Shown in pieces: positions 4,477-36,039 of a stretch of DNA of 64,000 nucleotides. The translations under genes were made by a program, and so were the position numbers. This DNA is from a virus (Duplodnaviria; Heunggongvirae; Uroviricota; Caudoviricetes), in the IMG/VR virus record IMGVR_UViG_3300036860_000563, positions 1-64,000 of that record. One strand, 5' to 3'. The notes under the pieces are model-generated. The model did not search any database, was not told the DNA's origin, and was given only the letters and a program-made list of their open reading frames with translations. The first letter of the stretch is position 1. The number at the start of each line of letters is the position of its first letter.

Positions 4477-4733
4477 GATGAGTCTCCGTCATCACGCGGC
4501 GTAGTCTTTGCACGACGCGGGCACGACGGACACGAACACACGCCCTCGGCGCACAACACGTACCCGACTCCCTCCCGGAACAGGTCACTGATTGTAATGT
4601 CACGCCGGTTCGCGATGTCACGTAGCGTGGCGGCTAGGCCGAACGGAAGTCGCACCGAGTGCACCGACCCGAGCATCTTAGGATCTACGGGTGTAGGACT
4701 TGGATCGTGACCGGGTTCGGTGAGCTCAGTCAT
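4473..4733 (-). CDS. ribbon-helix-helix (CopG/Arc-like) small DNA-binding protein with Cys-rich tail
   Basis: VRLPFGLAATLRDIANRRDITISDLFREGVGYVL resembles an RHH strand plus two helices. C-terminal CSCPSCP. ATG 4733 lies 2 nt after the ThyA-like stop. ATGA overlap with the downstream gene. Confidence 0.4.
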   Translation of the reverse strand: MTELTEPGHDPSPTPVDPKMLGSVHSVRLPFGLAATLRDIANRRDITISDLFREGVGYVLCAEGVCSCPSCPRRAKTTPRDDGDSS

Positions 4734-4735
4734 GG

Positions 4736-5572: not shown

Positions 5573-5705
5573 GATGATGAGTCTCGTCGGTGCATTTCAC
5601 GCTTATTCTCGTACTTAGCCATCAACCATAGTGAACCGAGCGTCATCATCACGACACAAACACACGTGACGGAGAATATCCAAGCGAACAGCTGCTCGAG
5701 ACCGG

Positions 5706-6662
5706 TCACAGTGTTACCTCCGATGAGCGTGAACCGTGGAGTAAAGGTGTGGTGACTCCAGCCGCGTCGAGAAGCCGTGTGACGTACTCTCGTTGAGCGT
5801 GATGATGAAAGCGACGAGCGTGCTGCGGGTGCTCAACGCGACCGAACCCCACCAGCCCGGCGCTCGTCGCGGCGATCGCAGAGTTGTGACCCAGCGTCAC
5901 GGCCGGTGGGGCGCCGAGCGTCGTGTACGTAGCGCGTAGCTCGTCACCTGACAGCTCACACGCGTTGAGGACACCCACCCGCTGGACGTTCACATCGGCG
6001 CTCACCAGGGCGTCGAACAACCAGAGGCCGGACGTGCCGACAGCTGGGCCGAAGGGCCACGGTAACGCGCTCGCCGGGGTGTGGCCGGGGTTTCGGCGGT
6101 CGCCGAGTAGCAGTAAGCCGGGGTCGGGTGGACCGACGTAACTGGGCAGTGAGACCGGACGAGTCCTCTCCGCCAACCTTATGACGTCGACGGGGTCGTG
6201 GGGTTCGTCGGTCAGCAGGGTGAACCAGTGAGCGTGTGAGCGTGAACCACAGTACTCATCATATCGCAGCGCAACGTGTGCGAGCTGTTCGACGTCGATG
6301 AGATCATCACCACGCTCGACGAATCGGCCCAGGAGTGTCTCGGGTTGAGCTGTCACGTGAATGAACGTCGCACCGAGGGTACGTAGCACCAGCTCTACGT
6401 ACGCGGCCTGCCCCAGTGATAAGATCGATCTCTCGCGTAAGAGCGGACCGTAGATGAGCTCGCCCACGTGCCAACGATCCAACACGTGATGTCGTTCATC
6501 CCCGACCAGCGCACCCAGTGGTACGAGGTACTCACCCATCCCGGTGGCAGCGTGGGGTGGTGGACCCTTCTTCCAGTGGTGTGTGGTGCCGAGGTGTCGT
6601 ACCAGCTCGCGCGCGAGTGTCGTCTTACCCCCGCAGTCAGGCCCCTCTAGTACGATAATCAC
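5706..6662 (-). CDS. dNMP (thymidylate-kinase-like) kinase fused to a C-terminal uracil-DNA-glycosylase-superfamily-like domain
   Basis: N-terminal IIVLEGPDCGGKTTLAREL (P-loop) and LDRWHVGE (DR[YH] motif). C-terminal LGDRRNPGHTP...LPWPFGPAVGTSGLWLFDAL resembles UDG family 4/5 motif A (GEAPG..E..G.PFvG.AG.LL). TLGHNSAIA resembles motif B. Confidence 0.55.
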   Translation of the reverse strand: MIIVLEGPDCGGKTTLARELVRHLGTTHHWKKGPPPHAATGMGEYLVPLGALVGDERHHVLDRWHVGELIYGPLLRERSILSLGQAAYVELVLRTLGATFIHVTAQPETLLGRFVERGDDLIDVEQLAHVALRYDEYCGSRSHAHWFTLLTDEPHDPVDVIRLAERTRPVSLPSYVGPPDPGLLLLGDRRNPGHTPASALPWPFGPAVGTSGLWLFDALVSADVNVQRVGVLNACELSGDELRATYTTLGAPPAVTLGHNSAIAATSAGLVGFGRVEHPQHARRFHHHAQREYVTRLLDAAGVTTPLLHGSRSSEVTL

Positions 6663-6667
6663 GGTGA

Positions 6668-7048
6668 CTACACTACCACCGTTCGGGCAACCGGTGTGAA
6701 CGTGACGAGGGTGACGTCATGTGACCTAGCCCACGTCACGTCACTCTTCGTAGGTGCTGGCTTGGTGATGAAGTCGAGGACACGGCGCGCGTTGGGCCGG
6801 CCGAGGTGATGACGTCCACGCGCTCGTCGTAGCGCGTGACGCTGGAGCCGTGGACGCGCACCCCGACCGGTCGTGAACCGGCCGTCATCTTCATCGTGAG
6901 GACGCGCGTCACGTCGCTCGAGCTGATGATCACGGCGCGCGAGCACCGTGACGGCCAGCGACGCGGCGATGAACAGCACGAGACCGACCAGCACCGTCGA
7001 CCCGAAGAAGCCGAGCGCCAAGAAACCAAGACCACCGGCGAGTGTCAC
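6668..7048 (-). CDS. small membrane protein
   Basis: About 35 hydrophobic N-terminal residues (two TM-like segments), followed by an Arg-rich region. Confidence 0.35.
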   Translation of the reverse strand: MTLAGGLGFLALGFFGSTVLVGLVLFIAASLAVTVLARRDHQLERRDARPHDEDDGRFTTGRGARPRLQRHALRRARGRHHLGRPNARRVLDFITKPAPTKSDVTWARSHDVTLVTFTPVARTVVV

Positions 7049-7837: not shown

Positions 7838-8109
7838 TCTCTGTGATCACTCTCTCGCCCAGCGGTTGGGTGAGACCTCTCGCCTCGCTACGCTGGATCA
7901 TACCAGGTACCTGCGCTAAAACCGTAGGTTACGTTGTGTGGACGACGACGCCCGGCGACCGCTTGTCAACTCGTCGGGAGTCGCCGCCGTCTCACCTTGT
8001 GGTACCGGTTCTTCACTCTTCCCCTCACAAGAAGCAAAGAACCACTCACTAGGTGTCCTCGCCGGGCTCGCCGCTGCACGACTCAAACAAGCTTAGACAC
8101 CTACGAGCG

Positions 8110-8183
8110 TAGCGGGAACCGGACTCGAACCGGTGACCTCTAGGTTATGAGCCTAGTGAGCTGCCGAGCTGCTCCACCCCGCG
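8110..8183 (-). tRNA. tRNA with CAT anticodon (Met or Ile2-type)
   Basis: Manual fold of the reverse strand: D-stem GAGC/GCTC, anticodon stem CTAGG/CCTAG with loop CTCATAA, variable loop AGGTC, T-arm ACCGG-TTCGAGT-CCGGT. Acceptor pairs 6/7 (position 1-72 is a C-U mismatch). Confidence 0.55.
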
Positions 8184-8683: not shown

Positions 8684-8878
8684 TCAGTCCTCCACGTCGA
8701 GTACGTCGACGTTCACAACGTCGTACGACGTACGATCGTCGGCGAGTGAGTGTGGGTCGTGCACCCAGATCGTTCGACCTAGGAGTAGCTGCTCACCCAG
8801 CTCCTCCGTCACGCGGTGTGGGTTCTGCTCCCAGCCCTCCAGACGATCGAGGGTGATGCGTAGTGTGATCTTCATCAC
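8684..8878 (-). CDS. hypothetical protein
   Basis: 64-aa ORF. Its start overlaps the next gene as ATGA. Confidence 0.3.
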   Translation of the reverse strand: MMKITLRITLDRLEGWEQNPHRVTEELGEQLLLGRTIWVHDPHSLADDRTSYDVVNVDVLDVED

Positions 8879-9168
8879 TAGGTCACATCGCTTATGAAGT
8901 GACCGGGTGACGCGGGTGTAAACCGAATGGCCGCAGTTAGATCAACGCCACGGCGAGGTGCGTCGGTGCACATCTTGGCCCACGTCAGCGGGCCAACGTT
9001 CCGATCGTCGTACATGTTAGGTGTGAACCAGTGACGAGTTGGTTCGCCGAAGAGTACCATCGCAGCTACGTCATCTCGCACCACGACGGTGCTGTAGTTG
9101 TCTTCGGTCTCCGGCCAGTAGAGAACCGTGCCGTCGGGTGGCTCCGGTAGAGTGAGGTCATCGGTCAT
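8878..9168 (-). CDS. hypothetical protein
   Basis: 96-aa ORF. Confidence 0.35.
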   Translation of the reverse strand: MTDDLTLPEPPDGTVLYWPETEDNYSTVVVRDDVAAMVLFGEPTRHWFTPNMYDDRNVGPLTWAKMCTDAPRRGVDLTAAIRFTPASPGHFISDVT

Positions 9169-9781
9169 CGAACGTCTCCTCGGTGTTTACTCGCCGCTGG
9201 TGAAACGCCTCGGCGATCAGTAGCGCGACCGATCGTAGTGTCGTTGTGGTCGCGTGCTCGGCCTCCAACTCCCAGTGTTCTTGACCCGCGCGAAGGGCGT
9301 CGTCAACCGCGGTAGCCGTGATGGCCGCGGCGCGCACCATCTCCCGGGCTTCGACGGCCGCGAGCGCGGTCACGGTCGCTCGCACCAACCGGGACTCGTA
9401 CTCATCACGCACGAGTCGTCGTTCGTCCTCGACGCGCTGAGCGGCGAGTCGCTCCACGGCCGTGACGCGCGCCGCCTCCGTGACACTCTGATCCAGTTCG
9501 TAACCGGTCGCCCACGCGAACAGCGTCGCGAGGTTGACACAGGCGAGTGCCTCGACACGCTGTCGTCCCGTGGCATCAAAGTCGCCGTGCCACAGAGTGA
9601 CATGCTGCTCAACACTAGCGTCCGCCGAGCAGTCAGCCCCGGGCCAGAATCCCGCGTTGTCGAAGATCGTACCCTCGACGGTCACGCACAGCTCCTGCTC
9701 GTCGGGCTCGTGCCAGTTCGGGCGAACACCGAGCTCACGCGCGAGTTCGACCAGCTCAGCACGCCGGGTGATTCGTCTCAC
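9158..9781 (-). CDS. hypothetical protein
   Basis: 207-aa ORF, Ala/Glu-rich and helical. Confidence 0.4.
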   Translation of the reverse strand: MRRITRRAELVELARELGVRPNWHEPDEQELCVTVEGTIFDNAGFWPGADCSADASVEQHVTLWHGDFDATGRQRVEALACVNLATLFAWATGYELDQSVTEAARVTAVERLAAQRVEDERRLVRDEYESRLVRATVTALAAVEAREMVRAAAITATAVDDALRAGQEHWELEAEHATTTTLRSVALLIAEAFHQRRVNTEETFDDR

Positions 9782-9879
9782 TAGGTCGCTCCTATCTCTC
9801 GATCACTCTCTACCTCACGAGCTACATCATATCAAGTTAACGTGATGTCGGCAACAACGACGGCTACGACCACGTAAGA

Positions 9880-10731
9880 TCACTCATAAAAGTGATCCGG
9901 AAGACCAAACATGTCCGGGCTCTCAAGGATCATCGCGCCAATGTCAGTGTCCCGGTTGCTCTCGTTGCGCACGAACGGCTCGATCATCCGGCCACGGGGA
10001 TCGAAGTTGCTGAAGTACATGATGGACTTACGCTCGGGATCGTACTCCTCCGGCGAGCTGACTCGTAGGTTGCGTGCCTGGTGGAACAACGGCGGGATCT
10101 CCTCACCGGTCATCGCCGTCAGGATGCTGCCCGGCATGATGAACACCTCGTCCGAGGCCGGTGTCAACGATGTGATCACGTCGTTGTGAAAGATCTCCAA
10201 ACCCGGCGCGCTGGTCCAGATCACGGTGGCCACCACGCCGTCCTCGTGCCTGGTCTGCAGCAGCTCGCGCTCGGTCGGCGTGTGGAACGAGTTGAACTGA
10301 AGCACCGAGGTCGCCTCAAACGGCAACGCGGCAACACTCTCCACACCCTCGCCGTAGTACTCGCACAACTCGGCGACCAGGCGGGACATCAGCACGACGC
10401 AGACGTCGCGACGGTAGTCCTCCAGCGCGGTCAGCAACGGCCTGATCAGACCAAACTCTGGGATCGAGTAGGCCGACCTCACACCCCAGAAGAGAAAGGA
10501 GTCGTTGAGGTCCACGGCGTTGGGATCACCCGCGTGTGCGGCGCCCAGTGGCCGGTACCCGTTGTTCAACTTTGGCGATTGGTGCAGCGCTTGGCGCTCG
10601 GGATCGCGCTGGCTGAACTCCGTGGTCTGATCGTACAGCTCGGTGAGCAGGCGCGCCTGCCACGCGCCGAGCTGAACCCGGGCGAACCCCGCCACACGGA
10701 ACTGGGTCAACAGCGGCAACGCTACGCACAC
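9880..10731 (-). CDS. 2-oxoglutarate/Fe(II)-dependent oxygenase (isopenicillin-N-synthase-like fold)
   Basis: RHEDGVVATVIWTSAPGLEIF (HxD plus GLQV-like strand), FHQARN (distal His), RKSIMYFSNFD (Arg-x-Ser 2OG binding). Confidence 0.6.
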   Translation of the reverse strand: MCVALPLLTQFRVAGFARVQLGAWQARLLTELYDQTTEFSQRDPERQALHQSPKLNNGYRPLGAAHAGDPNAVDLNDSFLFWGVRSAYSIPEFGLIRPLLTALEDYRRDVCVVLMSRLVAELCEYYGEGVESVAALPFEATSVLQFNSFHTPTERELLQTRHEDGVVATVIWTSAPGLEIFHNDVITSLTPASDEVFIMPGSILTAMTGEEIPPLFHQARNLRVSSPEEYDPERKSIMYFSNFDPRGRMIEPFVRNESNRDTDIGAMILESPDMFGLPDHFYE

Positions 10732-11009
10732 CGTGAAGAACCCGTCGCGGGTGCGAGACGCGCTGTGTCGAGACCGGCGACGAACTCGGCGCTACGCAGA
10801 GTAAACTCAGCGCGAAGAGCGCGCCACTCTCGCCAGGCGAAGATGCCACCGTGATAGCCGTACCACGTGGTGATCGCGGTGCGACGCCGTGCGTCGTCGC
10901 GGAGCGCGCTCAGGTAGCGAGCGTTGACGACGGTGAGCTCGCCCAGCGCGTGGTAGTCGCGCTCACCCAGCGCCCGGTCATACGGTGCGTGGCACGAGTG
11001 TGTGGTCAC
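10722..11009 (-). CDS. hypothetical protein
   Basis: 95-aa ORF overlapping the oxygenase start by 10 nt. Confidence 0.25.
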   Translation of the reverse strand: MTTHSCHAPYDRALGERDYHALGELTVVNARYLSALRDDARRRTAITTWYGYHGGIFAWREWRALRAEFTLRSAEFVAGLDTARLAPATGSSRCA

Positions 11010-11503
11010 CCGACACCCGCCTCCAGCCAGCGATCATACGCGACGGACAACCCGTGATCACGCGCGGCGGCGAGCTCGATCGCCTCCACGGACGCGTCCG
11101 GCAGCACCGGACGTCGCTGCCGCCACTGGGTGAGCAGCTCCATCACCTTGAACGCTGTGTCGGCCCAGGCGACGCGCGCGAAGTCGATCTCATCGGGCAC
11201 GCGAGTGCGCCCGAGTGTGTGTACGAGGTACGTCGCGCGCTCGGACACGACGTCGTCAACCACACGGTAGATCGCCACCTCGAACCAGCGACACGCGCGG
11301 CAGCGCCAACCCGGGGGTGCGGTGTCACCCAGGTGCTGGTGCTCCCGCTGGTGGGATGACGCCTCACCGAGCAGGCTTCCCCGGAACGAGACGTTCTCCC
11401 CACCGCGTCCACGCACGGTGTACACTCGTGTGAGTGCGTCACCCTGTGTGGTGACCCCGGTGGGTGGGCCGACGTTGGCGGAGTCCGCCACCTCATCGAT
11501 CAC
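11006..11503 (-). CDS. hypothetical protein
   Basis: 165-aa ORF. Confidence 0.4.
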   Translation of the reverse strand: MIDEVADSANVGPPTGVTTQGDALTRVYTVRGRGGENVSFRGSLLGEASSHQREHQHLGDTAPPGWRCRACRWFEVAIYRVVDDVVSERATYLVHTLGRTRVPDEIDFARVAWADTAFKVMELLTQWRQRRPVLPDASVEAIELAAARDHGLSVAYDRWLEAGVG

Positions 11504-11555
11504 GGTGTTTTCCTCTCACTCGATCACTACTATCCGTGGGATCAATCTTACCAGG

Positions 11556-11582
11556 AGCGCCCACCAACGGGTGCGTTGGTGG
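11556..11582 (-). terminator. 10-bp perfect hairpin GCCCACCAAC-GGGTGC-GTTGGTGGGC just downstream of the bL12-like gene
   Basis: Seen directly. Confidence 0.4.
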
Positions 11583-11600
11583 GCCGCCTCATGATCTTAT

Positions 11601-12122
11601 CTACGTACGGTGTGAAGATGAGGGTTGAACGATCGCCGTCGCACCCTCGTTCGTGAGAGCACGATGTACACGGTTGGCCTCATCGAGGTCGGTGTGGGTG
11701 AGCACGTCGACGGGCGCGGACTCGACGAACTCCTTCGCATCGCGAATGCCGAGGGCGAGTAGTCGACGAATCGTCCGGATGATGGGCAGCTTGTTGGGGC
11801 CAACGTCGACGAGCCGAACCGTGAACTCGGTGGGCTCATCTTCCACGCTCAACTCGCCGACGGCATCACCAACCGCATCACCAGGTGGTGACACGAGACG
11901 TGCCGGCTCGGCTGTGACGTCGAACGTCTCCGCGAACCGACGATGAAACTCGGTCAGCTCGACGAGAGTGAGGCCCCCGAACGCTTCGAGTAGGTCAGAG
12001 ACACGACTCTCACCACTCTCACCACTCTCACCACTCTCACCACTCTCACCACTCTCACCACTCTCACCACTCTCACCACTCTCACCGCTCTGCTCCACGG
12101 GTCTTTGCCTCCTCACAACCAC
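11601..12122 (-). CDS. ribosomal protein bL12 (L7/L12)-like protein with an inserted (ESG)9 repeat
   Basis: C-terminal domain EFTVRLVDVGPNKLPIIRTIRRLLALGIRDAKEFVESAPVDVLTHTDLDEANRVHRALTNEGATAIV matches the L7/L12 CTD pattern (EFDV.L...G.NK..VIK.VR..TGLGLKEAK.LVE.AP). N-terminal-domain-like SDLLEAFGGLTLVELTEF. The ESG repeat is encoded by (CACCACTCT)9. Confidence 0.65.
   Translation of the reverse strand: MVVRRQRPVEQSGESGESGESGESGESGESGESGESGESRVSDLLEAFGGLTLVELTEFHRRFAETFDVTAEPARLVSPPGDAVGDAVGELSVEDEPTEFTVRLVDVGPNKLPIIRTIRRLLALGIRDAKEFVESAPVDVLTHTDLDEANRVHRALTNEGATAIVQPSSSHRT
12005..12089. repeat. (CACCACTCT)n 9-nt tandem repeat, about 9 units
   Basis: Seen directly. In frame as (ESG)n within the bL12-like gene. 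Confidence 0.9.
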
Positions 12123-13768
12123 GGCCAGTGTGCGTCACGACCGGCCTCTAAGAGTGGGATCAACGTGAACGCCGCGTCGGTGAGGCCACCGAAGGTGTGA
12201 CGGTTGTGACTACCCGCCGGCGCGTGACCGCGCTCGTAGCCCGCGAGGTTCCACGTGTAGAGTGGCGTCGTCGTGGGAACGACGGCGCTCACCTCGACGT
12301 GAGTGGCGTCCGCGGCGGCCTGCTCGTCGGTGATGATGATGACGCGATCGTGACCAGCGTGGTGTTGACGCAGCGCCGCGGCGGTCGCGGTGCCACCACC
12401 GAGGAAGAAGCCGTCACTCGCCCAGCGGGAGAGTGTCGTGAGTAACGACTCACCGTCCCGGAGTGCGAACGTCTTCGTGTGCGCGCCGTGTGCGTCGCCC
12501 CACACTCGGGCGGCCGACGAGAACGACACGAGGTCGGCGCTCTTCGCGCGACCGGCGAGCGCCGCGCCAAAGATCACCGCGACGTCCCAGCGCTTAAGTG
12601 TGCTGTTGTGCGAGAACTGCTCGTCCATCGAGGACGACGTGTCCACCAGGATGAGCGTCCTGCCGGTGAGCCGAGGAACGTTCGCGAGACAGTAGTTGAG
12701 CGCGCGCTCGAGCGGGTACGCCCAGCGGAGGCTGGGTGCCGCGCGGTGCGCCGCGAGAAGCCGGAGGGGAAGCTGCCGTGACCGCGCGACCTCGATCGGG
12801 TCGGCGAGCCTCGCTGCCACGGTCTGTGCGACCGCGTCTCGGACGCCCGCCTCGTCGAGGTTGCGCAGGTTACGTAGTAGTGCCATGTACCCCATCGAGG
12901 GCGCGAGTGCCTCCCACAGTAGGTTCTTCGGTAGCCGGTCGCCGGCTAGCGAGAGCACGTTCTCCCACGTCATACCCGCCGCGGCCAACGTCTCTACGTC
13001 GAGTAGCCCTGAGATACTGCTCTCTGCGACCAGCGAGCGCAGCTCAGCGTTGCGACGAACCGTCGTCAGCAGCTTGGGAACGGCGTTGTCGTGGCCGTGC
13101 CGCCGGTCCAGGGCGTACTTGAACAGCTCACCTTGCCACGGTGCGGTCGGACGTGGGTGAGTCAGCTCGACGACGTCCCCGAACCGAAACGCGTGTGATG
13201 TGGTGTCGTACTTGAGCAGCGCGCGCTCGGTGTAGAGTCGCCGAACGGCGTCGGTGACGCCACGCTTAACCGGCTGGGGTAGGTTCCGACCGTAGGACAC
13301 GACGTAGTACGCCAGCAGCTCACCCGGCTCGTCGGCGCGCCGCAACACCGCGTCGACGAGCGCCCGCGCCAGTCCCCTGTCGTCGGAGAGGCCCGGTACC
13401 TCGTAGGCCGGTACGGACCCGAGGTCAGGACGCTCGCGGCGCGCTCGGATGAACTCGACGGCCCCGACGAGCGGCGCGGAGCGAAGGTCGGCGTCGGCGC
13501 GGAGCCAGCGGAGAAGCTGGAACACCCACACCGGGTCGGTGACCGCGACGGCACGCACCAGCTCACGAAACCGTGTGTCTCGCCGGGACGCTGACTCGTA
13601 GAACGCATCCTCACCCACGAGGTTTGACACGGCGAGCAGGAACAGCTCACTCTTCTCGTCACGGGCGTAGCCGGGTGCGCCCTCGTGTGTGAGACCGCCG
13701 GGTGTAGCCTCGGTGGTGACCGGGCTGGTCGTCGCCGGACGGACGCCGAGAACGTTGAACTTAGTCAT
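12113..13768 (-). CDS. rsr: Ro60/Rsr ortholog (TROVE domain + vWA with MIDAS)
   Basis: Blocks matching human Ro60: ALLRNL (identical to Ro60 LTALLRNLG); RTLILVDTSSSMDEQ ~ RFLLAVDVSASMNQ (DxSxS MIDAS); GGGTA ~ GGTD; RVIIITDEQ ~ VFIVFTDNE; GGLTDAAFTLI ~ CGFDTGALDVI. Confidence 0.7.
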   Translation of the reverse strand: MTKFNVLGVRPATTSPVTTEATPGGLTHEGAPGYARDEKSELFLLAVSNLVGEDAFYESASRRDTRFRELVRAVAVTDPVWVFQLLRWLRADADLRSAPLVGAVEFIRARRERPDLGSVPAYEVPGLSDDRGLARALVDAVLRRADEPGELLAYYVVSYGRNLPQPVKRGVTDAVRRLYTERALLKYDTTSHAFRFGDVVELTHPRPTAPWQGELFKYALDRRHGHDNAVPKLLTTVRRNAELRSLVAESSISGLLDVETLAAAGMTWENVLSLAGDRLPKNLLWEALAPSMGYMALLRNLRNLDEAGVRDAVAQTVAARLADPIEVARSRQLPLRLLAAHRAAPSLRWAYPLERALNYCLANVPRLTGRTLILVDTSSSMDEQFSHNSTLKRWDVAVIFGAALAGRAKSADLVSFSSAARVWGDAHGAHTKTFALRDGESLLTTLSRWASDGFFLGGGTATAAALRQHHAGHDRVIIITDEQAAADATHVEVSAVVPTTTPLYTWNLAGYERGHAPAGSHNRHTFGGLTDAAFTLIPLLEAGRDAHWPWL

Positions 13769-14443
13769 AATAAGCAGCTCTACTTCCTGCCCGCGTAGAA
13801 GTCGTCACACGAAAACGTGCGACCCAGGGTGATCGGCGCACCGAGCGCGTGAGAACCCATACCTACGCTCTCACACCCGCACACTCGCTAGGTCGCACGT
13901 TCTCACATCGTGCTCCCCGAGGACGTGTCGTTCACGGCTTGTCACAAACCGGAGAAGTAACCGTGAACTTCGCACCGAGGAGATAAGACGAGGACAGTGA
14001 TGATCAACGTTGACCGTCATCGTCCCACTTCAGCTGATGCTCGTATCTCGTTGAGTTGACCGAGTTCAGGGTGACCAACGGTGTGATTTCAGCCAATTTG
14101 AAGTAACCGTCGGTCGGCGCACCGGTCAACCTATGACAACACTAACAGGATCTTGTCGAGCGTGCAAACTCGTACCCACCGAGTGGCCGTCTAACGACAC
14201 TTGATGATCACTTGGTGATCGTCCGGTGGTGTCACTGGGTGACACCCGCACGCCGGAGTGGTTGTAGATTCAAGGCAGTAGACGACGGTGGGCGCCCAGC
14301 CGCCAAGCCTAGGCGCCCACTCACACAACTAGATAAACAGGAGTAGCTGTGTTGGATCCTATCATCACCTACAGACGGGAGTTGCCACAGGTGCTTAAGC
14401 TAATAGTACCACAACCGCGCTACGTCCACGGTTGTGAGCTGCC
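13769..14443. promoter_or_regulatory. 670-bp divergent intergenic region between rsr and primase: several palindromes/hairpins, candidate location of a Y-RNA-like ncRNA
   Basis: No ORF with coding signature. Palindrome GGTGTCAC-TGG-GTGACACC at about 14227..14245. GC hairpin GGTGGGCGCC...GGCGCCCAC at about 14288..14320. Long-range 8-bp pairing GTTGACCG (14063) / CGGTCAAC (14133). Confidence 0.4.
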
Positions 14444-14468
14444 GTGACGACGGAGAAGATCACGGCAG
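14409..14468 (+). promoter_or_regulatory. two adjacent inverted repeats (CACAACCG/CGGTTGTG and GCTGCCGTGA/TCACGGCAGC) bracketing the primase GTG start
   Basis: Seen directly. The second 10-bp stem contains the start codon (14444). Confidence 0.4.
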
Positions 14469-17068
14469 CGCGTGGTTACACCGAGCGTGGTTGGTACGTG
14501 TTCGTACTCGGAACTGGTAAGACACCACTGCCGAACTGCGAGAACTGCCGGCCGGAGATCACCGGGCCTTACCACGATCGCACCAACTGCGCGTGTCTCA
14601 CGTGTCACGCGTTCTACGCGGCGACGCGTGACGTTGACCGACTCACCGAGATGATCGAGCATCACCCGCTCGGCATGCTCGCGGTCCGAACGGGTAACGT
14701 GAGTCGATTGCTCGTCGTGGACGCGGAGGCTACGAAGAGTGAACCAAACGGACCCACCGGTCTGGAGGTTCTCGACGCTTGGGAGTCGTGGACCAACGGT
14801 GTTACGCTGCCAGCGACGCTTCAGCAGCGCACCGGCGGCGGTGGGCTTCACGCGCTCTACCGACTACCGGTAAGTGCGCCCATCATACGCAGTCGGCGCG
14901 TCTTGCCCAGCGTTGACGTCAAGGCCGAGCACGGCTACGTGGCGGTGGGACCGGGCGGTGACGGCCGTCACTGGGTGGATGAGGTTACGCCGGTCGCCGA
15001 CGCACCGTCGGAGCTCATCGCGTGGCTCAGCACCCAGCGGAACGTAGTGTTGCGAGCCCACGGTGGTGAAGACACCACTCCGATCGACTACTCATTTGCC
15101 GTTGCCCGAACGCTGGACGTCATACCGGACGGCTGGCGTGAGGTGTTCACGCGTGACTTATCGTTCGTGCTTCGAAAGTCCGGTGTCTCACGTGAGCGCG
15201 CGACCGAGGTGCTGCGTGAGCGCTGGACGACGTTCGCCCAGCCACCCAACGCGCAGCACTACGTACCGTGGGAGCACGTCGAGTACAAGATCGAGCGTGA
15301 TTGGACCAACTTGTTGCCAGACACACCTAGCGGCGGCATGACCTGGGCGCAGAACATCATTGATGAGGCAGCACGACGACTTACAGCGAGCTCGGCATTG
15401 GTCCCTATAAACAGCTTAGTGAACGACGAAGAGATCGATGAAGAGATCGCGGGCAGTGGTGAGAGTGATGAGCCACCGGCGCTCACAACACCTCCGTTGG
15501 CCGTCGGAGAGCTGGACCCGGACCGGTGGTATGGCACCCATGACGACGGCACGGCCGCTCGGTTGGTGGCCGTCTGGGGTGACTGGTTCCGGGCCATCCC
15601 ACGACAACGTGGCGGCTACACCTGGCTGTACTACGACGGTGTCACCTGGCACCAGGACACACGCGAGCAGATCTGGCAGGCGGTCGCCGAGGTCGTTAGA
15701 CGACTGCCGGACGAGCTGCACGCCTGGGAAGCTCGGTGTGCCGCACTAACCGTGGAGGGCGTGCAAGACTGGCGAACGGCGGTGATCGGAGGCAACGGAC
15801 AGAACGCCGGTGAGTTTCAGGTCGTCGTCGCTCTTAGGAAGTACGGTGCGGCCTGCCGCGAAAACGCGCGAAAAGAGACGGGGGCCCGAGCGTTCGCGCG
15901 CCTGCGCGCGGTGGCAGAGGCGGACCTGGACGCTAACACACGGTACCTGGGGTTACCGGATGGTCGAGCGCTCGACGTGAGAGCTGTTCACGTAGGCTCA
16001 GACCGCTCCACGTGGTTGGTGCCGGCACGACCAGAGATGCTGCTGACCAAGCAACTCGGGTGTGCGTACGTCCCGGTAGACCAGACGTACCCGGGCACCT
16101 GCTACGAGTTCTCCAACTTCCGCCGGTACCTGGAGGGCGTGTTGCCGGACGCGAAGGTTCGAAGCACGCTGCAGGAGTTCGTCGGCTACGCGCTACTCGG
16201 TGAACCAAACGAGAAGATCGTAGTGCTGCTCCACGGCCCCCCGGACTCCGGCAAGACGGTGTTACTGGAGGTCCTAGAGGCACTCTTTGGCGACTACGGT
16301 GGCTGGACGGACGCGCAGGCCCTGGTCGCGGGTAAGGCTAAGTCTGCGCATCAAGAGTGGTTGAACAACATCCGTGGACTGCGACTGGTTTGCACCCCAG
16401 AGACCGCGCGTGGTGCGAAGATCGACGCCGCGTGGATGAAGTCGTACTCTGGTCGAGAGCCACAGACCACGCGAGGCGCGTACGGTGACACATCGGTCAC
16501 GTGGAAGCCGACCGGGATAATCTTCAACGCGTCGAACCACTACGTCGAATATGACGCGGATGACACCGCGGTGGCGGAACGAACCCAAGTTATCGAGTTT
16601 GAGCGGCAGTTTCTACGCGGTAATGATGAGCGTGATGATCAGTTGCCACAAAAGATCCAGGACGGTGAGCTACCCATCGTACTCAACTGGGCGCTGGACG
16701 GACTGCGCCGGCACGGCGAGCGCGGTGGCCTACTCATCGCCGATCGGATAGTCGAGTGGTCGAACCGTTACCGGATCGCGCAGGATACGACGGGACAGTT
16801 CATCGCGGACGCGAGAGAAGAGGGTTTCCTCGTCGAGGATGAGACCGGTGCCGTGTCGTCAGCGTTCGTAACGGTTAAGGTCGTCTACGAGCTGTACCTG
16901 TCGTGGTGCCGTGTGCAGTCGGTCCGGCACCCGCTCGGTCGCAACAGGTTCAACGCACACCTACGAACGGTCTACGGCTGGCGGGACGTTCGAAGTGGTG
17001 TGACACGCTGGCACGGCTGGACGTCACCGGTAACGAGCGCCGCCTCGGTTGTACTACTCCAGTGGTGA
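14444..17068 (+). CDS. bifunctional primase-polymerase (Prim-Pol) / D5-like SF3 helicase
   Basis: N-terminal prim-pol-like region with zinc motif CENC...CACLTC and LHALYRLP. Walker A VVLLHGPPDSGKT. Long C-terminal D5/helicase-like region. Confidence 0.8.
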   Translation: MTTEKITAARGYTERGWYVFVLGTGKTPLPNCENCRPEITGPYHDRTNCACLTCHAFYAATRDVDRLTEMIEHHPLGMLAVRTGNVSRLLVVDAEATKSEPNGPTGLEVLDAWESWTNGVTLPATLQQRTGGGGLHALYRLPVSAPIIRSRRVLPSVDVKAEHGYVAVGPGGDGRHWVDEVTPVADAPSELIAWLSTQRNVVLRAHGGEDTTPIDYSFAVARTLDVIPDGWREVFTRDLSFVLRKSGVSRERATEVLRERWTTFAQPPNAQHYVPWEHVEYKIERDWTNLLPDTPSGGMTWAQNIIDEAARRLTASSALVPINSLVNDEEIDEEIAGSGESDEPPALTTPPLAVGELDPDRWYGTHDDGTAARLVAVWGDWFRAIPRQRGGYTWLYYDGVTWHQDTREQIWQAVAEVVRRLPDELHAWEARCAALTVEGVQDWRTAVIGGNGQNAGEFQVVVALRKYGAACRENARKETGARAFARLRAVAEADLDANTRYLGLPDGRALDVRAVHVGSDRSTWLVPARPEMLLTKQLGCAYVPVDQTYPGTCYEFSNFRRYLEGVLPDAKVRSTLQEFVGYALLGEPNEKIVVLLHGPPDSGKTVLLEVLEALFGDYGGWTDAQALVAGKAKSAHQEWLNNIRGLRLVCTPETARGAKIDAAWMKSYSGREPQTTRGAYGDTSVTWKPTGIIFNASNHYVEYDADDTAVAERTQVIEFERQFLRGNDERDDQLPQKIQDGELPIVLNWALDGLRRHGERGGLLIADRIVEWSNRYRIAQDTTGQFIADAREEGFLVEDETGAVSSAFVTVKVVYELYLSWCRVQSVRHPLGRNRFNAHLRTVYGWRDVRSGVTRWHGWTSPVTSAASVVLLQW

Positions 17069-17087
17069 GTACAAACTGGTATAAATC

Positions 17088-17440
17088 CTGGCAATGATCT
17101 TGGCAGTTTCACCGTTGTTGATCTATATTGAAAGTGCCAAGGTCTCATATGGGATCATATCGTCTTGGCACTTTCACCTAGGATCTGGCAGTTTCAACGG
17201 CCCGAAAACTCCCAAACTGCCAAGAAAGTGCCAAGGCATCCTACATCATATTGATCTTCATTTAACCAGCTAGATCCTTTATACCAACTAAACTTAATCT
17301 TATTTTAAGTTATGATTGGCAGTTTGGCAGTTTCGCTAGGGTTGTTAGAGGTATAAGGAGGAGGAAATTGGGGATATTTATACCGATTTGTTCCCCACCC
17401 TTCCCTGGTGGTACTAAACTACTCTCAGAACTGCCAAAAT
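17088..17440. repeat. AT-rich iteron array: at least 9 copies of TTGGCA(G/C)TTTC in both orientations; putative replication origin
   Basis: Copies at about 17100, 17130 (rc), 17165, 17185, 17214 (rc), 17224 (rc), 17316, 17325, 17428 (rc). Local GC is far below the window average. Sits immediately downstream of the primase/helicase gene. Confidence 0.6.
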
Positions 17441-17452
17441 GAATCATCTTAA

Positions 17453-17866
17453 TTGATATCAAGAGTTAATGATAACGAAAGTGGTGTTGTACCGGCACCT
17501 ATCACCGGCCTGGACGGCATCCGGTGGGCACTCATGCCGACGAAGTACGCGGAGGCGACACTACGGTCATTCGGGCAGCTAGATCACGTAAATGAGTTCA
17601 TCGAGTGGCTCCGGGACCGCGACGTGCTCCAGGTCGTGGACATGTCCCAGATGCCGGTGTCACACTGCACCAAGGCGACGGAGCTGCACGAGTGGTACGC
17701 GCTCTGGGTTAAGAAGCACGGTGATAAGCAGGACAGGGCCGAGGCGCTCAACCTACGAGACTTCTGTGCGGCGCTACGCGACCGCGGCTGGGTGTCGCGG
17801 CAGAGCGCGGGGACGCGCTGGGTAGGAACTCGGCTCACGCAGGTCCCGGGAATCTGGTCACTTTAA
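17453..17866 (+). CDS. hypothetical protein
   Basis: TTG-start ORF (alternative ATG at 17534). Confidence 0.4.
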   Translation: MISRVNDNESGVVPAPITGLDGIRWALMPTKYAEATLRSFGQLDHVNEFIEWLRDRDVLQVVDMSQMPVSHCTKATELHEWYALWVKKHGDKQDRAEALNLRDFCAALRDRGWVSRQSAGTRWVGTRLTQVPGIWSL

Positions 17867-18314
17867 GTCACCCCACTGACCAGCGACGAGTAATGATTCA
17901 GTAATACTGGTTGGGTAAACTGGGTGCCAAATGAGAGTACAGATCACTGACATCACTATGTGATGGACTACTACTAGCTTAGTTTGTACTTAGTTTGTAC
18001 CTTATTGTAAGTAGAGAGTATAGGGGGATTTGGGGAGAGTTACCAGCTAGATGACTTGCCCGTGAACGATTGTAACCTTGTACCCACTAGTCGTGAAAGC
18101 TCGCGCGAGCGTCTGCGCGACGTGCGCGTCTGAGGAGGCTGGGGAAACTTTTCGGAGCCAGGTGCTTACAGGGTACAAAGTGGAGTTAATGACACAGAAT
18201 CACGTAGTTGAGGACCTCACGTCGCCCGGGCCTCTCAACACGGCGAGCACGACAGCCTAACGCACGAGTGCGTGAACTTTGTGGAATTAGCACACATGTG
18301 AAGAACTGTCGCCC

Positions 18315-19280
18315 GTGCCCGGTGCACGTAGTATGATTGTGTTTGTGCCACAGGTTACGCGGAGACACGTCGAGGAGGGTGTCGTCGGGGCGGAGCGAGC
18401 CGCGACGCTGAGCGACGCGCAGCGACGCGGCCTGCGCCACGCGACGAACCGCTGGGCGACCGGTCCCCGTGAACTGGCGCTCGGGGCCGTGCTCTCACGG
18501 CTGGGCACACCGCGAAAGCTGCGAGGCATGGGCCTAGGTCACGGTGGTCTCGTCCGCTGGGTCACGGACCCGGACGGAGCTCGCTGGCCCGCGTTCACGG
18601 TCGCCGAGCTGATGGCGAACGGGATCAAGGGACCGCGTTGTCCGGAGCGACGCCGCCGGGCCCGGGGAACACCGTGGTGTCACAACCTGGCGGGTGCGCG
18701 AACGGATCACCTGGGAGTGGGGCGTTGTCGTTCGCACAGTGGCAACCGGTCGAGCATGAGGGCGGAAGGTGCCTGGGTCATGTCACACGCGTTCTCTCAA
18801 GAATTCAACTGCTCTCCCTGGGAGGGACTTCTCTGGGCGGTCCGCGTCGCCGCCGGGAAGCTCGCGTACTGCGAGCGGGTGATCGGCACGGCGACGTCGG
18901 ACCTCCAGCTGGAGGGCCGGCTCGCTCGTAACGAGGCGGGTGTCCAGGTGGATCCCGACACGGGCGAGCCGCTGGGCGTCGGTGGCCTGCGTGACCTGTC
19001 GTTCTGGGTCGCGAAGTCCGAGCTGTGGCACGAGCGACTCGCGCGAGTGAGCAAGCTCGCGGTGGACGCGGGTGTGGCCGAGCGCGTCGTCGAGGCGCAG
19101 ATCCTGCAGGTGCAGCTCATGACGCGACCCGTCGAGGCGGCACTCGCCGCGCTGGATCTTACGGTCGAGCAGGAGAGTGTCGCGCGTCACGCGCTTCGAA
19201 CGGAGCTGCTGGCGATCGAGGCCGAGCGCGTGGGAGTCATCGTCGGGTCGTCGCCGGACGAGTGGAGTGAGACGTCGTGA
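18315..19280 (+). CDS. hypothetical protein with a Cys/His cluster
   Basis: High GC3 across the ORF. PRCPERRRRARGTPWCHNLAGARTDHLGVGRCRSH. Preceded by a 450-bp low-GC non-coding stretch containing the TTAGTTTGTAC x2 direct repeat. Confidence 0.4.
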   Translation: MPGARSMIVFVPQVTRRHVEEGVVGAERAATLSDAQRRGLRHATNRWATGPRELALGAVLSRLGTPRKLRGMGLGHGGLVRWVTDPDGARWPAFTVAELMANGIKGPRCPERRRRARGTPWCHNLAGARTDHLGVGRCRSHSGNRSSMRAEGAWVMSHAFSQEFNCSPWEGLLWAVRVAAGKLAYCERVIGTATSDLQLEGRLARNEAGVQVDPDTGEPLGVGGLRDLSFWVAKSELWHERLARVSKLAVDAGVAERVVEAQILQVQLMTRPVEAALAALDLTVEQESVARHALRTELLAIEAERVGVIVGSSPDEWSETS

Positions 19281-20598: not shown

Positions 20599-20916
20599 GT
20601 GTTGCAAACCGTCGGTGACGACTCGTCAACCCACCGACTGGGTGAGAGGGAGGATGATGTGAGGGCACACGGTCGCGTGTCGACGTACACCAACGGGGGT
20701 TGTCGCTGCCTCGCCTGCACCGAAGCGAACACCGCTCGCGTTCGACGAGCCCAGCTTAAGCGCGCCGAGCGGCTCATCGTGAATCCTCAACTCGTTGTTC
20801 ACGGCCGTGCGTCGACGTACACCAACTGGGGTTGTCGTTGTAGACCGTGCACCGATGCGAACACCGCTTCGAGCCTAGTTTATAAGCGTAGTCGACGAGC
20901 TGCGGCCGGTGCGTGA
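20599..20916 (+). CDS. small protein with tandemly duplicated HGR(V/A)STYTN(G/W)GCRCxxCT(E/D)ANTA motif (putative zinc/DNA-binding)
   Basis: Two roughly 22-aa copies are visible in the translation. Confidence 0.45.
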   Translation: MLQTVGDDSSTHRLGEREDDVRAHGRVSTYTNGGCRCLACTEANTARVRRAQLKRAERLIVNPQLVVHGRASTYTNWGCRCRPCTDANTASSLVYKRSRRAAAGA

Positions 20917-20935
20917 CGAGAACGATGGGAGTAAC

Positions 20936-21391
20936 GTGAGGTACGTCGAGGCGCCTCATCCACTGTACGACGTGCGCGAGCGAGCGCTGTTTCTCGCCGG
21001 TGGCATCACCAACTGTGTTGACTGGCAGAGTGACGTGGTGACGTGGCTGCGCGACCAGCGCATCACAGTGCTGAACCCACGGCGGCCGAACTTCGACGTC
21101 GGGAACCGGGCCGCGGCGTACGCCCAGGTTGCGTGGGAGCATCGTCACCTGCGACTCGCCGACGTCATCCTGTTCTGGTTCCCGGCGTCGGGCGACGTCG
21201 CGCAGCCGATCGCGCTCTACGAGCTCGGCTACTGGGTTAACTCCAGTAAGCAACTCGCGGTGGGAGCGCACCCGGACTACGTGCGACGATACGACGTAGA
21301 GCTGCAAGTTAAGCTCACGCGGCCGGCGCAGGTGATTCACGGTGACCTCATGAACACGGTGGCGGACGCCGTCGAGCTGCTAAAGTGGTGA
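20936..21391 (+). CDS. nucleoside 2-deoxyribosyltransferase / DNPH1(Rcl)-like enzyme
   Basis: ALFLAGGITNCVDWQ and IALYELGYWVNSSKQLAV fit the family's YLAG and E.G.A...K motifs. GGGAG RBS before GTG 20936 (the ORF opens at 20909). Confidence 0.55.
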   Translation: MRYVEAPHPLYDVRERALFLAGGITNCVDWQSDVVTWLRDQRITVLNPRRPNFDVGNRAAAYAQVAWEHRHLRLADVILFWFPASGDVAQPIALYELGYWVNSSKQLAVGAHPDYVRRYDVELQVKLTRPAQVIHGDLMNTVADAVELLKW

Positions 21392-24732: not shown

Positions 24733-25860
24733 ATGGTGATGACGACACTCGCTGACGTTCTCGATCCGCACGCGCTTCGGCGCGCGCTGACGAGTGGACA
24801 CGTCCGCGCCCAAGCTCACCCCGAGCTACCCTACACGATCTTGAACTACACCGAGCGAGCGGCGTATGACGTCGCCTGGAATGACGTCACGTTGTCGTGT
24901 CGTGGTCTGATCTACGATCACAGCACGGACGTGGTGCTCGCGCGACCGTTTCGGAAGTTCTTCAACTACGGACAGCTCTTCAGCCACGGACAGTCTAGCG
25001 GACCGATCCTCGACCTCGACTCCGCGGCGGTGGTCACGGACAAGGCGGACGGTAGCCTGGGCATCTTATACCCAACACCGGACGACTGGGCGATCGCGAC
25101 CCGTGGTTCGTTCACGAGCGACCAGGCGGTGCACGCCACCGAGGTCCTGCGGTCACGGTACGCCACGTTCGAACCGCCGCCCGGGCTGACCGTCCTGGTG
25201 GAGATCGTGTACCCGGGCAACCGGATCGTGCTGAACTACGGCGACCTGGACGACCTGATCCTGCTCGGCGCGGTGGACATCGCCACAGGTCGCTCATTCG
25301 ATCCTGGCGTCTTGATGGGTTGGCCCGGACCGGTAACCGAGGTCTTCTCCTACGCCACCCTGGCACAAGCGCTGGTGGCTCCGCCACGACCGAACGCGGA
25401 GGGGCTCGTGGTGCACCTATCCCACAGTGATAACCGGGTGAAGTTTAAGCAGGAGGACTACGTCGCGCTACACCGCATCGTCACCGGGCTCAACGCTCGC
25501 ACGGTGTGGCGGCACGTCGTCAGTGGTGAGCCGCTCGGTGAACTAATCACTCCGCTGCCCGACGAGTTTCACCCGTGGGTGCGCGCTGTCACCGCCGAGC
25601 TCACCGCTCGCGTCGAGCGACAGCGCGCCGAGCTGGTGCGGGCGTACGACGACGTGCTGTGGGAGCTGTCGCAGCTGACGAAGACGGCAGAGGACTGGAC
25701 GCGTAAGGACTTCGCGCTCCACGTAGCGTCCCACCCTCACCGCTGGGCGATGTTTATGCTACTAGATCGGCGTGACATCTGCCCAACACTGTGGCAGCGC
25801 GCTCAACCCGAGGCGTCGTGGACGCCGTCCGGACGCACCTACTCGGAGGACACAGCGTGA
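24733..25860 (+). CDS. ATP-dependent RNA ligase
   Basis: Nucleotidyltransferase motif I VVTDKADGSLGIL (KxDG), motif IV EGLVVH, motif V RVKFKQ. GAGAAGG RBS. Confidence 0.65.
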   Translation: MVMTTLADVLDPHALRRALTSGHVRAQAHPELPYTILNYTERAAYDVAWNDVTLSCRGLIYDHSTDVVLARPFRKFFNYGQLFSHGQSSGPILDLDSAAVVTDKADGSLGILYPTPDDWAIATRGSFTSDQAVHATEVLRSRYATFEPPPGLTVLVEIVYPGNRIVLNYGDLDDLILLGAVDIATGRSFDPGVLMGWPGPVTEVFSYATLAQALVAPPRPNAEGLVVHLSHSDNRVKFKQEDYVALHRIVTGLNARTVWRHVVSGEPLGELITPLPDEFHPWVRAVTAELTARVERQRAELVRAYDDVLWELSQLTKTAEDWTRKDFALHVASHPHRWAMFMLLDRRDICPTLWQRAQPEASWTPSGRTYSEDTA

Positions 25861-25918
25861 ACATGTTCTTCTTCATCGGCTTTGTGGTGGGACTACCGGT
25901 CTTCTACGTGATCGCTCG

Positions 25919-27055
25919 ATGGATCATGAGACGATGATGGACCTGTCGGGTGCGAGTCTTCAGGTGCTGCTCACCGTACACACGAACCTGCGCAACGGCC
26001 TGAGTCGCGTCGCTGAGACGCTGGACGACGGCACGTTTCACGTCGTTGGAGCGCACGGTGAGGCGTCACCGGCCCAGTTTGGTCAGCTCATTCTCATCCT
26101 ACTCAGAGAGATCAACGCCGAGCTCTATCGGAGAACGGAAGCCCTCATGCCGACGCTGACGATCACCCGCGGCCTGCCCGCCTGCGGCAAGACGACCTGG
26201 GCTCGGGCCTGGGTGGCGCGTGACCCGACCCACCGGGCCAGGGTGAACCGGGACGACCTGCGCGCCATGGTCCACGACGGGGTGTGGCTCGGGCAGGACA
26301 CCGAGAAGCAGATCGTCGCCGGCCGCGACGCCACGATCCGGGCACTGCTACGGCGCGGGGTCGACGTGGTGTGCGACGACACCAACCTGCCGCAGCGAAC
26401 CGCCCGGGACCTGCGCCGCCTCGCCGTTGTGGCCGGTGCCGAGTTCCTGGTGGTTGACTTGAGCGACGTGCCGGTCGGCGAGTGCGTGCGCCGCGACGCC
26501 GTCCGTGACCGGCCGGTCGGCGAGTCGGTGATCCGGGACATGTGGAACCGGCACGTGCGTGGCCGGCCGCGTCCGCTGCCGCTCGCCGACGAGCCGCAGG
26601 ACGGGGGCGACCAGCCGGTGCCCTACGTTCCGCCGCCGGGCGCACCCAGCGCGGTGCTCGTCGACGTCGACGGCACAGTGGCGCTGATGGCCGCCCGGTC
26701 GCCGTACGACGAGACGCGCGTGCGCGAGGATCGTCCCAACCTGCCGGTGATCGCTGTGGTGAACGCACTCTACGACGCCGGCCACGCCGTGGTGTTCTGC
26801 TCGGGCCGCACCGAGGGCTGCCGCGTCGAGACCGAACGCTGGCTCTGTGAGCACGTGATGGCGCCGGTCACCGCTCTTCACATGCGCGCCGTTGGCGACA
26901 CTCGCAGAGACGCGATCGTGAAGCTGGAGCTGTTCGACCGCCACATCCGCGACGCGTACCGCGTGGTGTGCGTCCTCGACGACCGCGACCAGGTCGTAGA
27001 GATGTGGCGTGCGCTGGGCCTGACGGCGCTGCAGGTGGCACCCGGCGACTTCTAG
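25919..27055 (+). CDS. polynucleotide kinase-phosphatase (P-loop kinase + DxDxT phosphatase)
   Basis: TRGLPACGKTTWA (P-loop); VLVDVDGTVA (DxDGT); VCVLDDRDQVV (HAD motif IV). The catalytic core probably starts at ATG 26147. 25919..26146 is in the same frame with no stop, so the N-terminal limit is uncertain. Confidence 0.7.
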   Translation: MDHETMMDLSGASLQVLLTVHTNLRNGLSRVAETLDDGTFHVVGAHGEASPAQFGQLILILLREINAELYRRTEALMPTLTITRGLPACGKTTWARAWVARDPTHRARVNRDDLRAMVHDGVWLGQDTEKQIVAGRDATIRALLRRGVDVVCDDTNLPQRTARDLRRLAVVAGAEFLVVDLSDVPVGECVRRDAVRDRPVGESVIRDMWNRHVRGRPRPLPLADEPQDGGDQPVPYVPPPGAPSAVLVDVDGTVALMAARSPYDETRVREDRPNLPVIAVVNALYDAGHAVVFCSGRTEGCRVETERWLCEHVMAPVTALHMRAVGDTRRDAIVKLELFDRHIRDAYRVVCVLDDRDQVVEMWRALGLTALQVAPGDF

Positions 27056-35807: not shown

Positions 35808-35951
35808 CGAGAGACACTCGTCCTAGGAGTGAGCGTCACTCGAGGATGTGAGTGGCGGAGGAAGTGGAGCCGGTTGGACCGTCCGGCGCGCGACACACCG
35901 GTACGATCGCTTGGTCAGCGAGGGACTACCGGTACCCGATCTCACATCCGA

Positions 35952-36023: not shown

Positions 36024-36039
36024 CGAAGATCTTGATAGG

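Follow-up and report, generated by a model that had tools for sequence, protein, structure and literature searches.

What is the function of a dense cluster of short repeats that lies directly behind a primase gene in an uncultured tailed phage? The repeats, or iterons, occur in a 64,000-nucleotide stretch of DNA (positions 1 to 64,000 of the IMG/VR virus record IMGVR_UViG_3300036860_000563, Caudoviricetes), referred to here as the window, and occupy the non-coding gap that follows the gene for a fused Prim-Pol/superfamily 3 (SF3) primase-helicase. Few phages have experimentally mapped replication origins, and those of uncultured high-GC phages are thus largely unknown. The gap is probably the replication origin, or at least a cis site bound by the initiator, and the initiator would be the primase-helicase encoded upstream. 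The array is real and conserved, and its role, as predicted from sequence, is to bind protein.

A repeat array confined to one gap

An earlier description, made from this DNA alone (the sequence-only reading), had counted at least nine iterons in both orientations. Allowing one mismatch, there are ten matches to TTGGCAGTTT in the window, five on each strand, and every one of them falls within the 338 bp from 17100 to 17437 (Table 1); the other 63.6 kb contains none. Dinucleotide-preserving shuffles of the window gave a mean of 0.87 matches and a maximum of 4. The exact 9-mer TGGCASTTT is found eight times in the array and once elsewhere in the window. The motif is the 10-bp sequence TTGGCA[G/C]TTT, its first copy begins 32 bp past the primase-helicase stop codon, and the centre-to-centre spacings are, from left to right, 31, 34, 20, 21, 8, 11, 91, 8 and 104 bp. 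The back-to-back copies described earlier are also present: 17214 and 17225 are separated by an 11-bp step, and 17316 and 17324 overlap with an 8-bp step, as seen again at 17206/17214. The suggestion that TTGGCA is half of a palindrome did not hold, as the repeats are asymmetric 10-11-mers and not classical palindrome halves. A partial copy at 17088-17095 (CTGGCAAT) was too degenerate to be counted.

The two remaining points of that description, an AT-rich gap and a position right after the primase-helicase, are borne out. The GC content of the gap is 41%, compared with 63% for the window, and the bin 17201-17600 (GC 0.445) is the lowest of all 160 bins of 400 bp. The gene ends at 17068, and its product carries Prim-Pol and D5_N domains with a weak Pox_D5 match. 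Within the gap, a left-facing triplet of iterons (E1, E2 and F, 17206-17234) forms the left border of an AT-rich, G-poor spacer, and 17206-17223 and the tandem pair G/H at its right border form an 18-nt inverted repeat that is 94% complementary. The spacer is 74-78% A+T (31 of 40 positions in 17280-17319), with 2 G and 10 C in 17260-17299. On the far side of the pair, the tract 17340-17379 has 16 G and no C.

Table 1. Positions of the iterons, the subregions of the gap and the adjoining genes in the window (ORF, open reading frame; L numbers denote the loci of relatives described in the next section).
Feature	Position	Strand	Description
Prim-Pol/D5-type (SF3) primase-helicase gene	14444-17068	+	874 amino acids from the first possible GTG; proposed initiator
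C-terminal winged-helix domain	16859-17065	+	spans about residues 806-874 of the primase-helicase; proposed to bind the iterons
Non-coding low-GC gap	17069-17452		384 bp; from the primase-helicase stop to the next ORF; holds the entire element
Iteron A	17100-17109	+	TTGGCAGTTT; matching first + copy in L001, L002, L004, L007, L008, L010
Iteron B	17131-17140	-	TTGGCACTTT; inverted partner of A, 31 bp off
Iteron C	17165-17174	+	TTGGCACTTT
Iteron D	17185-17194	+	CTGGCAGTTT; 20 bp past C
Iteron E1	17206-17215	-	TTGGGAGTTT
Iteron E2	17214-17223	-	TTGGCAGTTT
Iteron F	17225-17234	-	TTGGCACTTT
AT-rich, G-poor spacer	17235-17315		81 bp; proposed DNA-unwinding element
Iterons G and H	17316-17333	+	TTGGCAGTTTGGCAGTTT; overlapping tandem pair with 8-bp step; bounds the spacer on the right
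Core between H and I	17334-17427		about 95 bp; TATA-like box 17352-17357, purine-rich C-free tract 17340-17379, degenerate box CCGATTTGTTCC 17383-17394
Iteron I	17428-17437	-	TTGGCAGTTC; single inverted copy 104 bp past H; closes the element
First downstream ORF	17453-17866	+	137 amino acids, start uncertain; outside the element; marks its right boundary

The 64-kb window has no second iteron cluster, and neither do the 11-15 kb that surround the gene in four close relatives (L001-L004); outside the arrays there are only scattered matches with one or two mismatches. A candidate cluster at 63026/63074 was rejected, as it consists of two weak matches within GC-rich coding sequence. Two other candidate features of the gap were also discarded. 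GATC (Dam) sites are denser there than genome-wide (15.6 versus 7.5 per kb), but the gaps of the relatives show no consistent excess, and a micro-ORF that seemed conserved in the core (CPFC...CKS) is broken by a stop codon in L010 and a frameshift in L007 and has no start codon in L004.

Constant layout, changing motif

A protein search with the primase-helicase returned an identical protein (P0001), encoded on a JGI contig of 94 kb, together with ten relatives that are 51-59% identical and five that are 28-33% identical. The DNA comparison covered every one of the ten close relatives and two of the distant ones (L011 and L012, 28-30% identity), and nine of the close loci could be read through the gap. 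The tenth, L005 (a Logan contig encoding the primase relative P0007), ends at 7640, 36 bp past the stop codon, where the array would start, and the repeats probably caused the assembly to break there. A megablast search with 16000-19000 gave no match among deposited phage genomes, the best tblastn identity to cultured phages was 26%, and protein and DNA scans of IMG/VR for close relatives were empty.

All nine readable close relatives have, after the primase stop codon, a gap of 400-640 bp whose GC content is 9-20 points below the locus average. The GC content of these loci ranges from 44 to 70%, which implies that the hosts are diverse. An array follows the gene in each of the nine, and in all twelve loci when the window and the two distant relatives are included. 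The 10-mer of the relatives has the form TTG-NNN-GTTT with a lineage-specific centre, L003 (TTGGACATTC) being the exception. The central triplet is GCA in the window, CAA in L001, AAA in L002, GAC in L003, TAG in L004, GAA in both L006 and L008, and AAG in L007, L009 and L010. With at most one mismatch to a locus's own motif, the matches in the gap and in the rest of the locus number 10/0 in the window and 6/0, 9/0, 5/2, 6/0, 3/0, 5/0, 7/0, 2/0 and 3/0 in the nine relatives. The distant relatives have dense arrays after the gene as well, built from motifs unrelated to that of the window: GTTACGGAT and TGTTACAGAT in L011, and in L012 a triple TGTAACACT followed, after about 70 bp, by a run of inverted copies. 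The sequence-only reading had named lack of motif conservation in related phages as grounds for refutation. Taken literally, the motif is not conserved, as the central bases differ, but the array and its architecture are. Variable central bases on a retained architecture are the behaviour expected of iterons that are matched to their own initiator.

The architecture is retained in some detail, although some copies are degenerate in L003, L006 and L009. From the left, the order is a plus copy, a minus copy about 21-31 bp on, two plus copies about 20 bp apart and one to three minus copies; then come an AT-rich, G-poor spacer of 70-93 bp, the plus-strand tandem pair with its 8-bp step, a core of about 100 bp and one minus copy. 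The A/B-type pair, spaced by 21-31 bp, occurs in L001, L002, L004, L007, L008 and L010, and the C/D step of 19-20 bp in the same loci except L008. Outward-facing copies flank the AT-rich spacer in the window and all nine relatives, and the 70-93 bp distance from the last left-facing copy to the pair is found in the window, L001, L002, L003, L004 and L008. The tandem pair, written in each lineage's own motif, is at the matching place in all nine relatives (one copy is degenerate in L006, L007, L009 and L010), and the final inverted copy is present in every close relative, 101-136 bp past the second copy of the pair.

Composition follows the same plan. In all ten loci (the window and the nine), A+T makes up 60-73% of the 60 nt upstream of the tandem pair, where the GC skew is -0.16 to -0.75; in the 60 nt downstream, the skew is +0.25 to +1.0. 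The sign of the top-strand GC skew therefore flips at the pair in ten of ten (17256-17315 versus 17334-17393 in the window). Since the DNA is G-poor before the pair and C-poor after it, the strands read 5' to 3' away from the pair are purine-rich in both directions. The pair is followed by a TATA-like box, 12-22 nt away in most loci, and a purine-rich run. Farther into the core, a box that is not an iteron, ATGTCCGTTTTG, lies at a fixed place in seven of the ten loci at up to two mismatches in either orientation (plus strand: L001 8989, L004 3921, L009 3837, L010 3343 and L007 3137; minus strand: L003 9016 and L006 3771), and the copy in the window is weaker. That this box stays constant as the iterons change suggests a factor common to all lineages, which could be a host protein or the Prim-Pol domain.

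The sequence beyond the gap is not shared. The ORF that follows differs in each lineage, the next conserved gene being the homologue of 18315-19280, so the primase gene is the array's sole constant neighbour. In the window, the product of the first downstream ORF had no Pfam or PHROG match and no homologue at the equivalent position in any relative.

Several loci carry further repeats at the gap edges that are specific to their lineage: four to five tandem GGTGATGTAAT units in L002 (about 8684-8735), starting inside the primase stop codon; CGACGGCA repeats at both gap ends in L010 (2930-2945 and 3540-3560); and CGATC-rich repeats in L007 (2760-2810). The word TTGGCAGTTT also occurs in unrelated elements on other metagenome contigs. 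L130 (10037-10164) and L049 (1793-1880) have six to seven copies on both strands, directly after the stop codon of an approximately 430-residue DUF3987 protein that lacks similarity to the window primase and that, in L049, has a weak C-terminal helix-turn-helix match. In L127, four copies and four inverted copies surround about 125 bp. These may be independent arrays that use the same word. When metagenomes were scanned for the 18-mer tandem pair, most of the matches were unrelated 8-bp microsatellites, and no primase homologue turned up.

The candidate initiator and known replicons

The primase-helicase has a Prim-Pol domain at its N terminus, of the archaeo-eukaryotic primase type (PF09250, 3.8e-19), and a D5_N domain (5.4e-07); Pox_D5 matches residues 798-843 at 0.0024, below the cutoff. 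In PHROG, it matches phrog_1156, DNA primase (7.6e-76), and the PHROG DNA primase families match over the full length. The C-terminal residue W874 is invariant, and the end of the gene is thus well defined. In 11 primases, the last 70 or so residues contain an invariant helix, GRNxFNxHL..VY, and after it a beta-hairpin; the AlphaFold model of the last 113 residues (762-874) is confident, with a predicted local distance difference test score of 82. This region is a winged helix, and the P4 origin-binding domain (1KA8, RFX-like fold) is its joint best structural match. The surroundings of the array yielded no other conserved DNA-binding protein.

By analogy, the best-fitting known system is that of the Staphylococcus aureus pathogenicity islands (SaPIs) and the Escherichia coli phage-inducible chromosomal islands (PICIs), every published layout feature of which has a counterpart here. 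SaPI Rep proteins read their iterons through a C-terminal winged-helix domain, and 6-12 iterons lie immediately 3' of rep; the origin has an AT-rich centre with at least two iterons per side in opposite directions (PMC9371898). Allelic SaPI and PICI Rep types have their own iteron sequences (PMC9371898, PMC6092414). Similarly, the protein in the window is an SF3 initiator-helicase fused to a primase, as in PriRep5 of SaPI5, with a C-terminal winged helix, ten iterons right after the gene and opposed sets around an AT-rich centre. Unlike those islands, the contig of about 94 kb is phage-like and not a satellite, given its PolA gene, its tRNAs and RNA-repair genes, and a block of long plus-strand ORFs (903-1832 amino acids, not family-scanned) that look like structural genes; the element would work like a SaPI origin without belonging to a PICI.

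Comparison with P4 is less straightforward. The sequence-only reading likened the locus to P4 alpha and its ori, and two parts of the likeness stand: there is an array 3' of the gene, and the C-terminal origin-binding domain of P4 has the 1KA8 fold, which is matched here structurally. However, in the P4 record the ten type-1 repeats immediately 3' of alpha (4636-6969, minus strand) make up crr (4291-4590) and include 9-bp-step tandem pairs and inverted copies, and ori is at 9086-9809, about 4.5 kb from crr. P4 alpha also has a DnaG-type primase (PMC2777425) where the window has Prim-Pol, and its iterons are the octamer TGTTCACC instead of TTGGCA[G/C]TTT. An order of primase, SF3 helicase and winged helix is the organisation of both P4 alpha and pRN1 ORF904, and 1KA8 has been paired with RFX (PMC2777425). 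For the Sulfolobus plasmid pRN1, two published accounts give the same order of Prim-Pol, D5_N/SF3 helicase and RFX/P4-like winged helix, and an essential cis region just 3' of the replication gene (PMC2777425, PMC4234260). This is an archaeal plasmid and not a tailed phage, and its authors found no iterons in the 3' region (PMC2777425). Iteron plasmids such as pPS10, F, R6K and RK2 (oriV) likewise have direct repeats of the initiator site beside an AT-rich unwinding element and use winged-helix initiators (PMC4980987), but their small WH1-WH2 Reps recruit host DnaB and primase, whereas here the initiator would itself be helicase and primase. The Pfam scan of the window found no Rep_3-type protein. 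Phage repressor operator arrays, for example the stoperators of cluster A mycobacteriophages, are spread over the genome in many copies, which lie between genes and in or close to promoters. The array in the window differs from such dispersed sites in being confined to 338 bp.

The putative iteron origin proposed from sequence is thus supported by an array kept 3' of the gene in nine of nine close and two of two distant relatives, by the SaPI/PICI layout and by the P4-like winged helix. The array is most likely an origin served by the adjacent Prim-Pol/SF3 helicase through that domain. In the mechanism that we infer, the C-terminal winged helix would bind the 10-bp iterons, and hexamers would assemble on the outward-facing sets at 17206-17234 and 17316-17333, on either side of the 81-bp spacer. 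The spacer would then melt, the 3'-5' SF3 helicase would load itself and the N-terminal Prim-Pol domain would prime. Extension could fall to the phage's own family-A polymerase (PolA, with exonuclease; 1971-3881), whose presence was counted in favour of an origin. The outlying copies, A-D on the left and I on the right, may bind cooperatively or organise a second flank at 17334-17427.

Several results weigh against this interpretation, as do some of the points made for other roles in the next section. Foldseek matches of the C-terminal domain are weak (E > 0.1), though many are winged-helix domains, and searches of PDB with its sequence found no match, 1KA8 included. No covariation of winged helix and iteron type was detected (Mantel r = 0.13, p = 0.28, a weak test with ten sequences), and the partial correlation of motif and domain turns negative once the rest of the protein is controlled for. 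L006 and L008 both have TTGGAAGTTT, yet their winged helices are 63% different. Nine protein columns track the groups that share a motif (the GAA pair and the AAG trio), and none of the nine is in the winged helix. The proposal that this domain reads the iterons is based on its fold, its position and analogy, and not on covariation. In the cultured mycobacteriophages Aminay and Strobilo, whose primases are about 26% identical over the C-terminal 57% or so of the window primase, there is no gap after the gene, so the arrangement is specific to this lineage and not general to actinophage primases. Finally, cumulative GC skew, which had been put forward as a check, reaches its minimum in the window at about 12-14.4 kb, where gene orientation flips, and not at 17.2 kb; because the minimum tracks the change of coding strand, GC skew is uninformative as an indicator of the origin.

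If the element is an origin, it is a precise and testable candidate in an uncultured phage lineage, with ten predicted binding sites, a spacer that would unwind and a candidate domain to bind the sites. Its mechanism would be of the familiar SaPI/P4 type and would leave the understanding of phage replication unchanged. The twelve loci also form a comparative series, in which the window and its nine close relatives supply seven central triplets and the two distant relatives supply other motifs, and which could be used to study site choice by P4/RFX-type winged helices or to build compatible mini-replicons. A bolder and rather doubtful idea is that these phages are a natural series of mutually orthogonal initiator-origin pairs on one fixed scaffold (the site order, the 8-bp tandem pair, the skew switch and box ATGTCCGTTTTG), in which the conserved winged helix (GRNxFNxHL) reads TTG-NNN-GTTT and a few residues re-specify the central triplet. 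It is conceivable, if not probable, that within such a scheme the pair and the C-free purine tract mark a defined bidirectional start for Prim-Pol priming. Were the series orthogonal, it would make the recognition code of RFX/P4-type origin-binding domains readable and supply compatible replicons for engineering.

Other roles for the gap and other features of the window

The array could instead be a cis-required replication enhancer like crr, to which the primase-helicase binds while initiation takes place at a second iteron cluster elsewhere, as in P4. Because the P4 array directly 3' of alpha is crr and not ori, the P4 analogy fits such a site as well as it fits an origin, and about 30 kb of the 94-kb source contig falls outside the window that was scanned for a second cluster. 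However, P4 uses two separated sites, and a single cluster is present in the 64-kb window and the 11-15 kb loci of L001-L004. The element moreover has its own AT-rich spacer between outward-facing iteron sets, which is the complete layout of a SaPI-type origin (PMC9371898). The enhancer is accordingly considered unlikely.

A role in transcription is also improbable. In that case, the repeats would be operators for a phage regulator, either the primase winged helix or another protein, that gates a downstream promoter, and they would have no direct part in replication. The genes downstream run in the same direction, and a search of 13500-18500 gave no terminator-like site. Iteron A is overlapped by a promoter-like sequence, TTGGCA-18-TATATT (10/12), and H by another on the minus strand; every lineage motif also shares its initial TTG with -35 hexamers. 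In most loci, the tandem pair is followed by a TATA-like box, but its distance from the pair varies too much (12-22 nt) for a conserved -35/-10 geometry, and the iteron was rejected as the -35 element of a conserved promoter. Ten sites on both strands of 340 bp, around an 81-bp AT-rich spacer, are an atypical layout for operators. The motif is missing from the other large regulatory gap, 13769-14443, as from the rest of the window; the regulated gene would differ in each lineage where the upstream primase is constant; and no conserved regulator gene was found nearby. It may well be that a promoter for the downstream genes shares the gap with an origin.

The remaining possibilities are weaker still. 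That the inverted copies pair to form a structured element in RNA or single-stranded DNA, for example a leader RNA or a priming signal of the ssi type, is highly improbable. Folded as single-stranded DNA, the gap has z = -6.2, and RNAalifold pairs H with I with compensatory changes in 5 of 11 pairs, but these changes are automatic, as both arms copy the lineage's motif. Pairing leaves the direct tandem copies (G/H, C/D and E/F) and copies A-F unexplained, there is no other conserved helix in the core of about 100 nt, and the Rfam 15 covariance models gave no match at E ≤ 1 across 11000-19000. A conserved RNA structure was therefore rejected, the iteron-iteron pairing that was found being trivial. 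A centromere-like partition site or a packaging (pac/cos) site is very unlikely: such sites are likewise arrays of short protein-binding repeats in AT-rich DNA, and TubR-type winged helices are among the weak fold matches, but no lineage was found to have a ParA-, ParB- or TubZ-like gene beside the array, more than 15 kb separates it from the structural block with its likely terminase gene (33232-34740, not family-scanned), and in each of the twelve loci the array goes with the primase gene.

Left of the primase-helicase gene, a divergent intergenic region of 675 bp (13769-14443) separates it from a leftward block. Instead of iterons, this region has repeats of its own (TCGGCGCACCG and GAAGTAACCGT, two copies each) as well as a palindrome (13992-14025). 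In or near it, about 3-5 kb left of the iteron array, cumulative GC skew across the window reaches its minimum. The first gene of the block, 12113-13768 on the minus strand, encodes a Ro60/TROVE and vWA protein (Pfam TROVE 3e-17, phrog_850). The 220 nt upstream of it (13769-13990, minus strand) fold into a long stem (minimum free energy -98.7 kcal/mol, z = -3.3; arms 13811-13827 and 13888-13904) that could be a Y-RNA-like partner of Ro, although Rfam has no match for it at the same threshold. Adjoining the Ro gene, 11601-12122 on the minus strand encodes a protein that resembles ribosomal L7/L12 in its C-terminal domain (3.7e-14) and is collagen-like over an N-terminal stretch. The relatives lack this Ro/L12 block between the primase and the conserved divergent gene.

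Elsewhere in the window, genes for a T4 Rnl1-like RNA ligase and a polynucleotide kinase-phosphatase (24733-27055, plus strand) overlap by about 90 nt in the mechanical ORF list, and three tRNAs are present (8109-8183 on the minus strand, 35738-35808 and 35952-36024 on the plus strand). Together with Ro, these look like an RNA-repair kit. The window also encodes a thymidylate synthase, a nucleoside 2-deoxyribosyltransferase-like protein (20909-21391, plus strand; 1e-22) and a protein with a weak match to 2OG-Fe(II) oxygenases (9880-10731, minus strand), and the latter two may relate to nucleotide or DNA modification.

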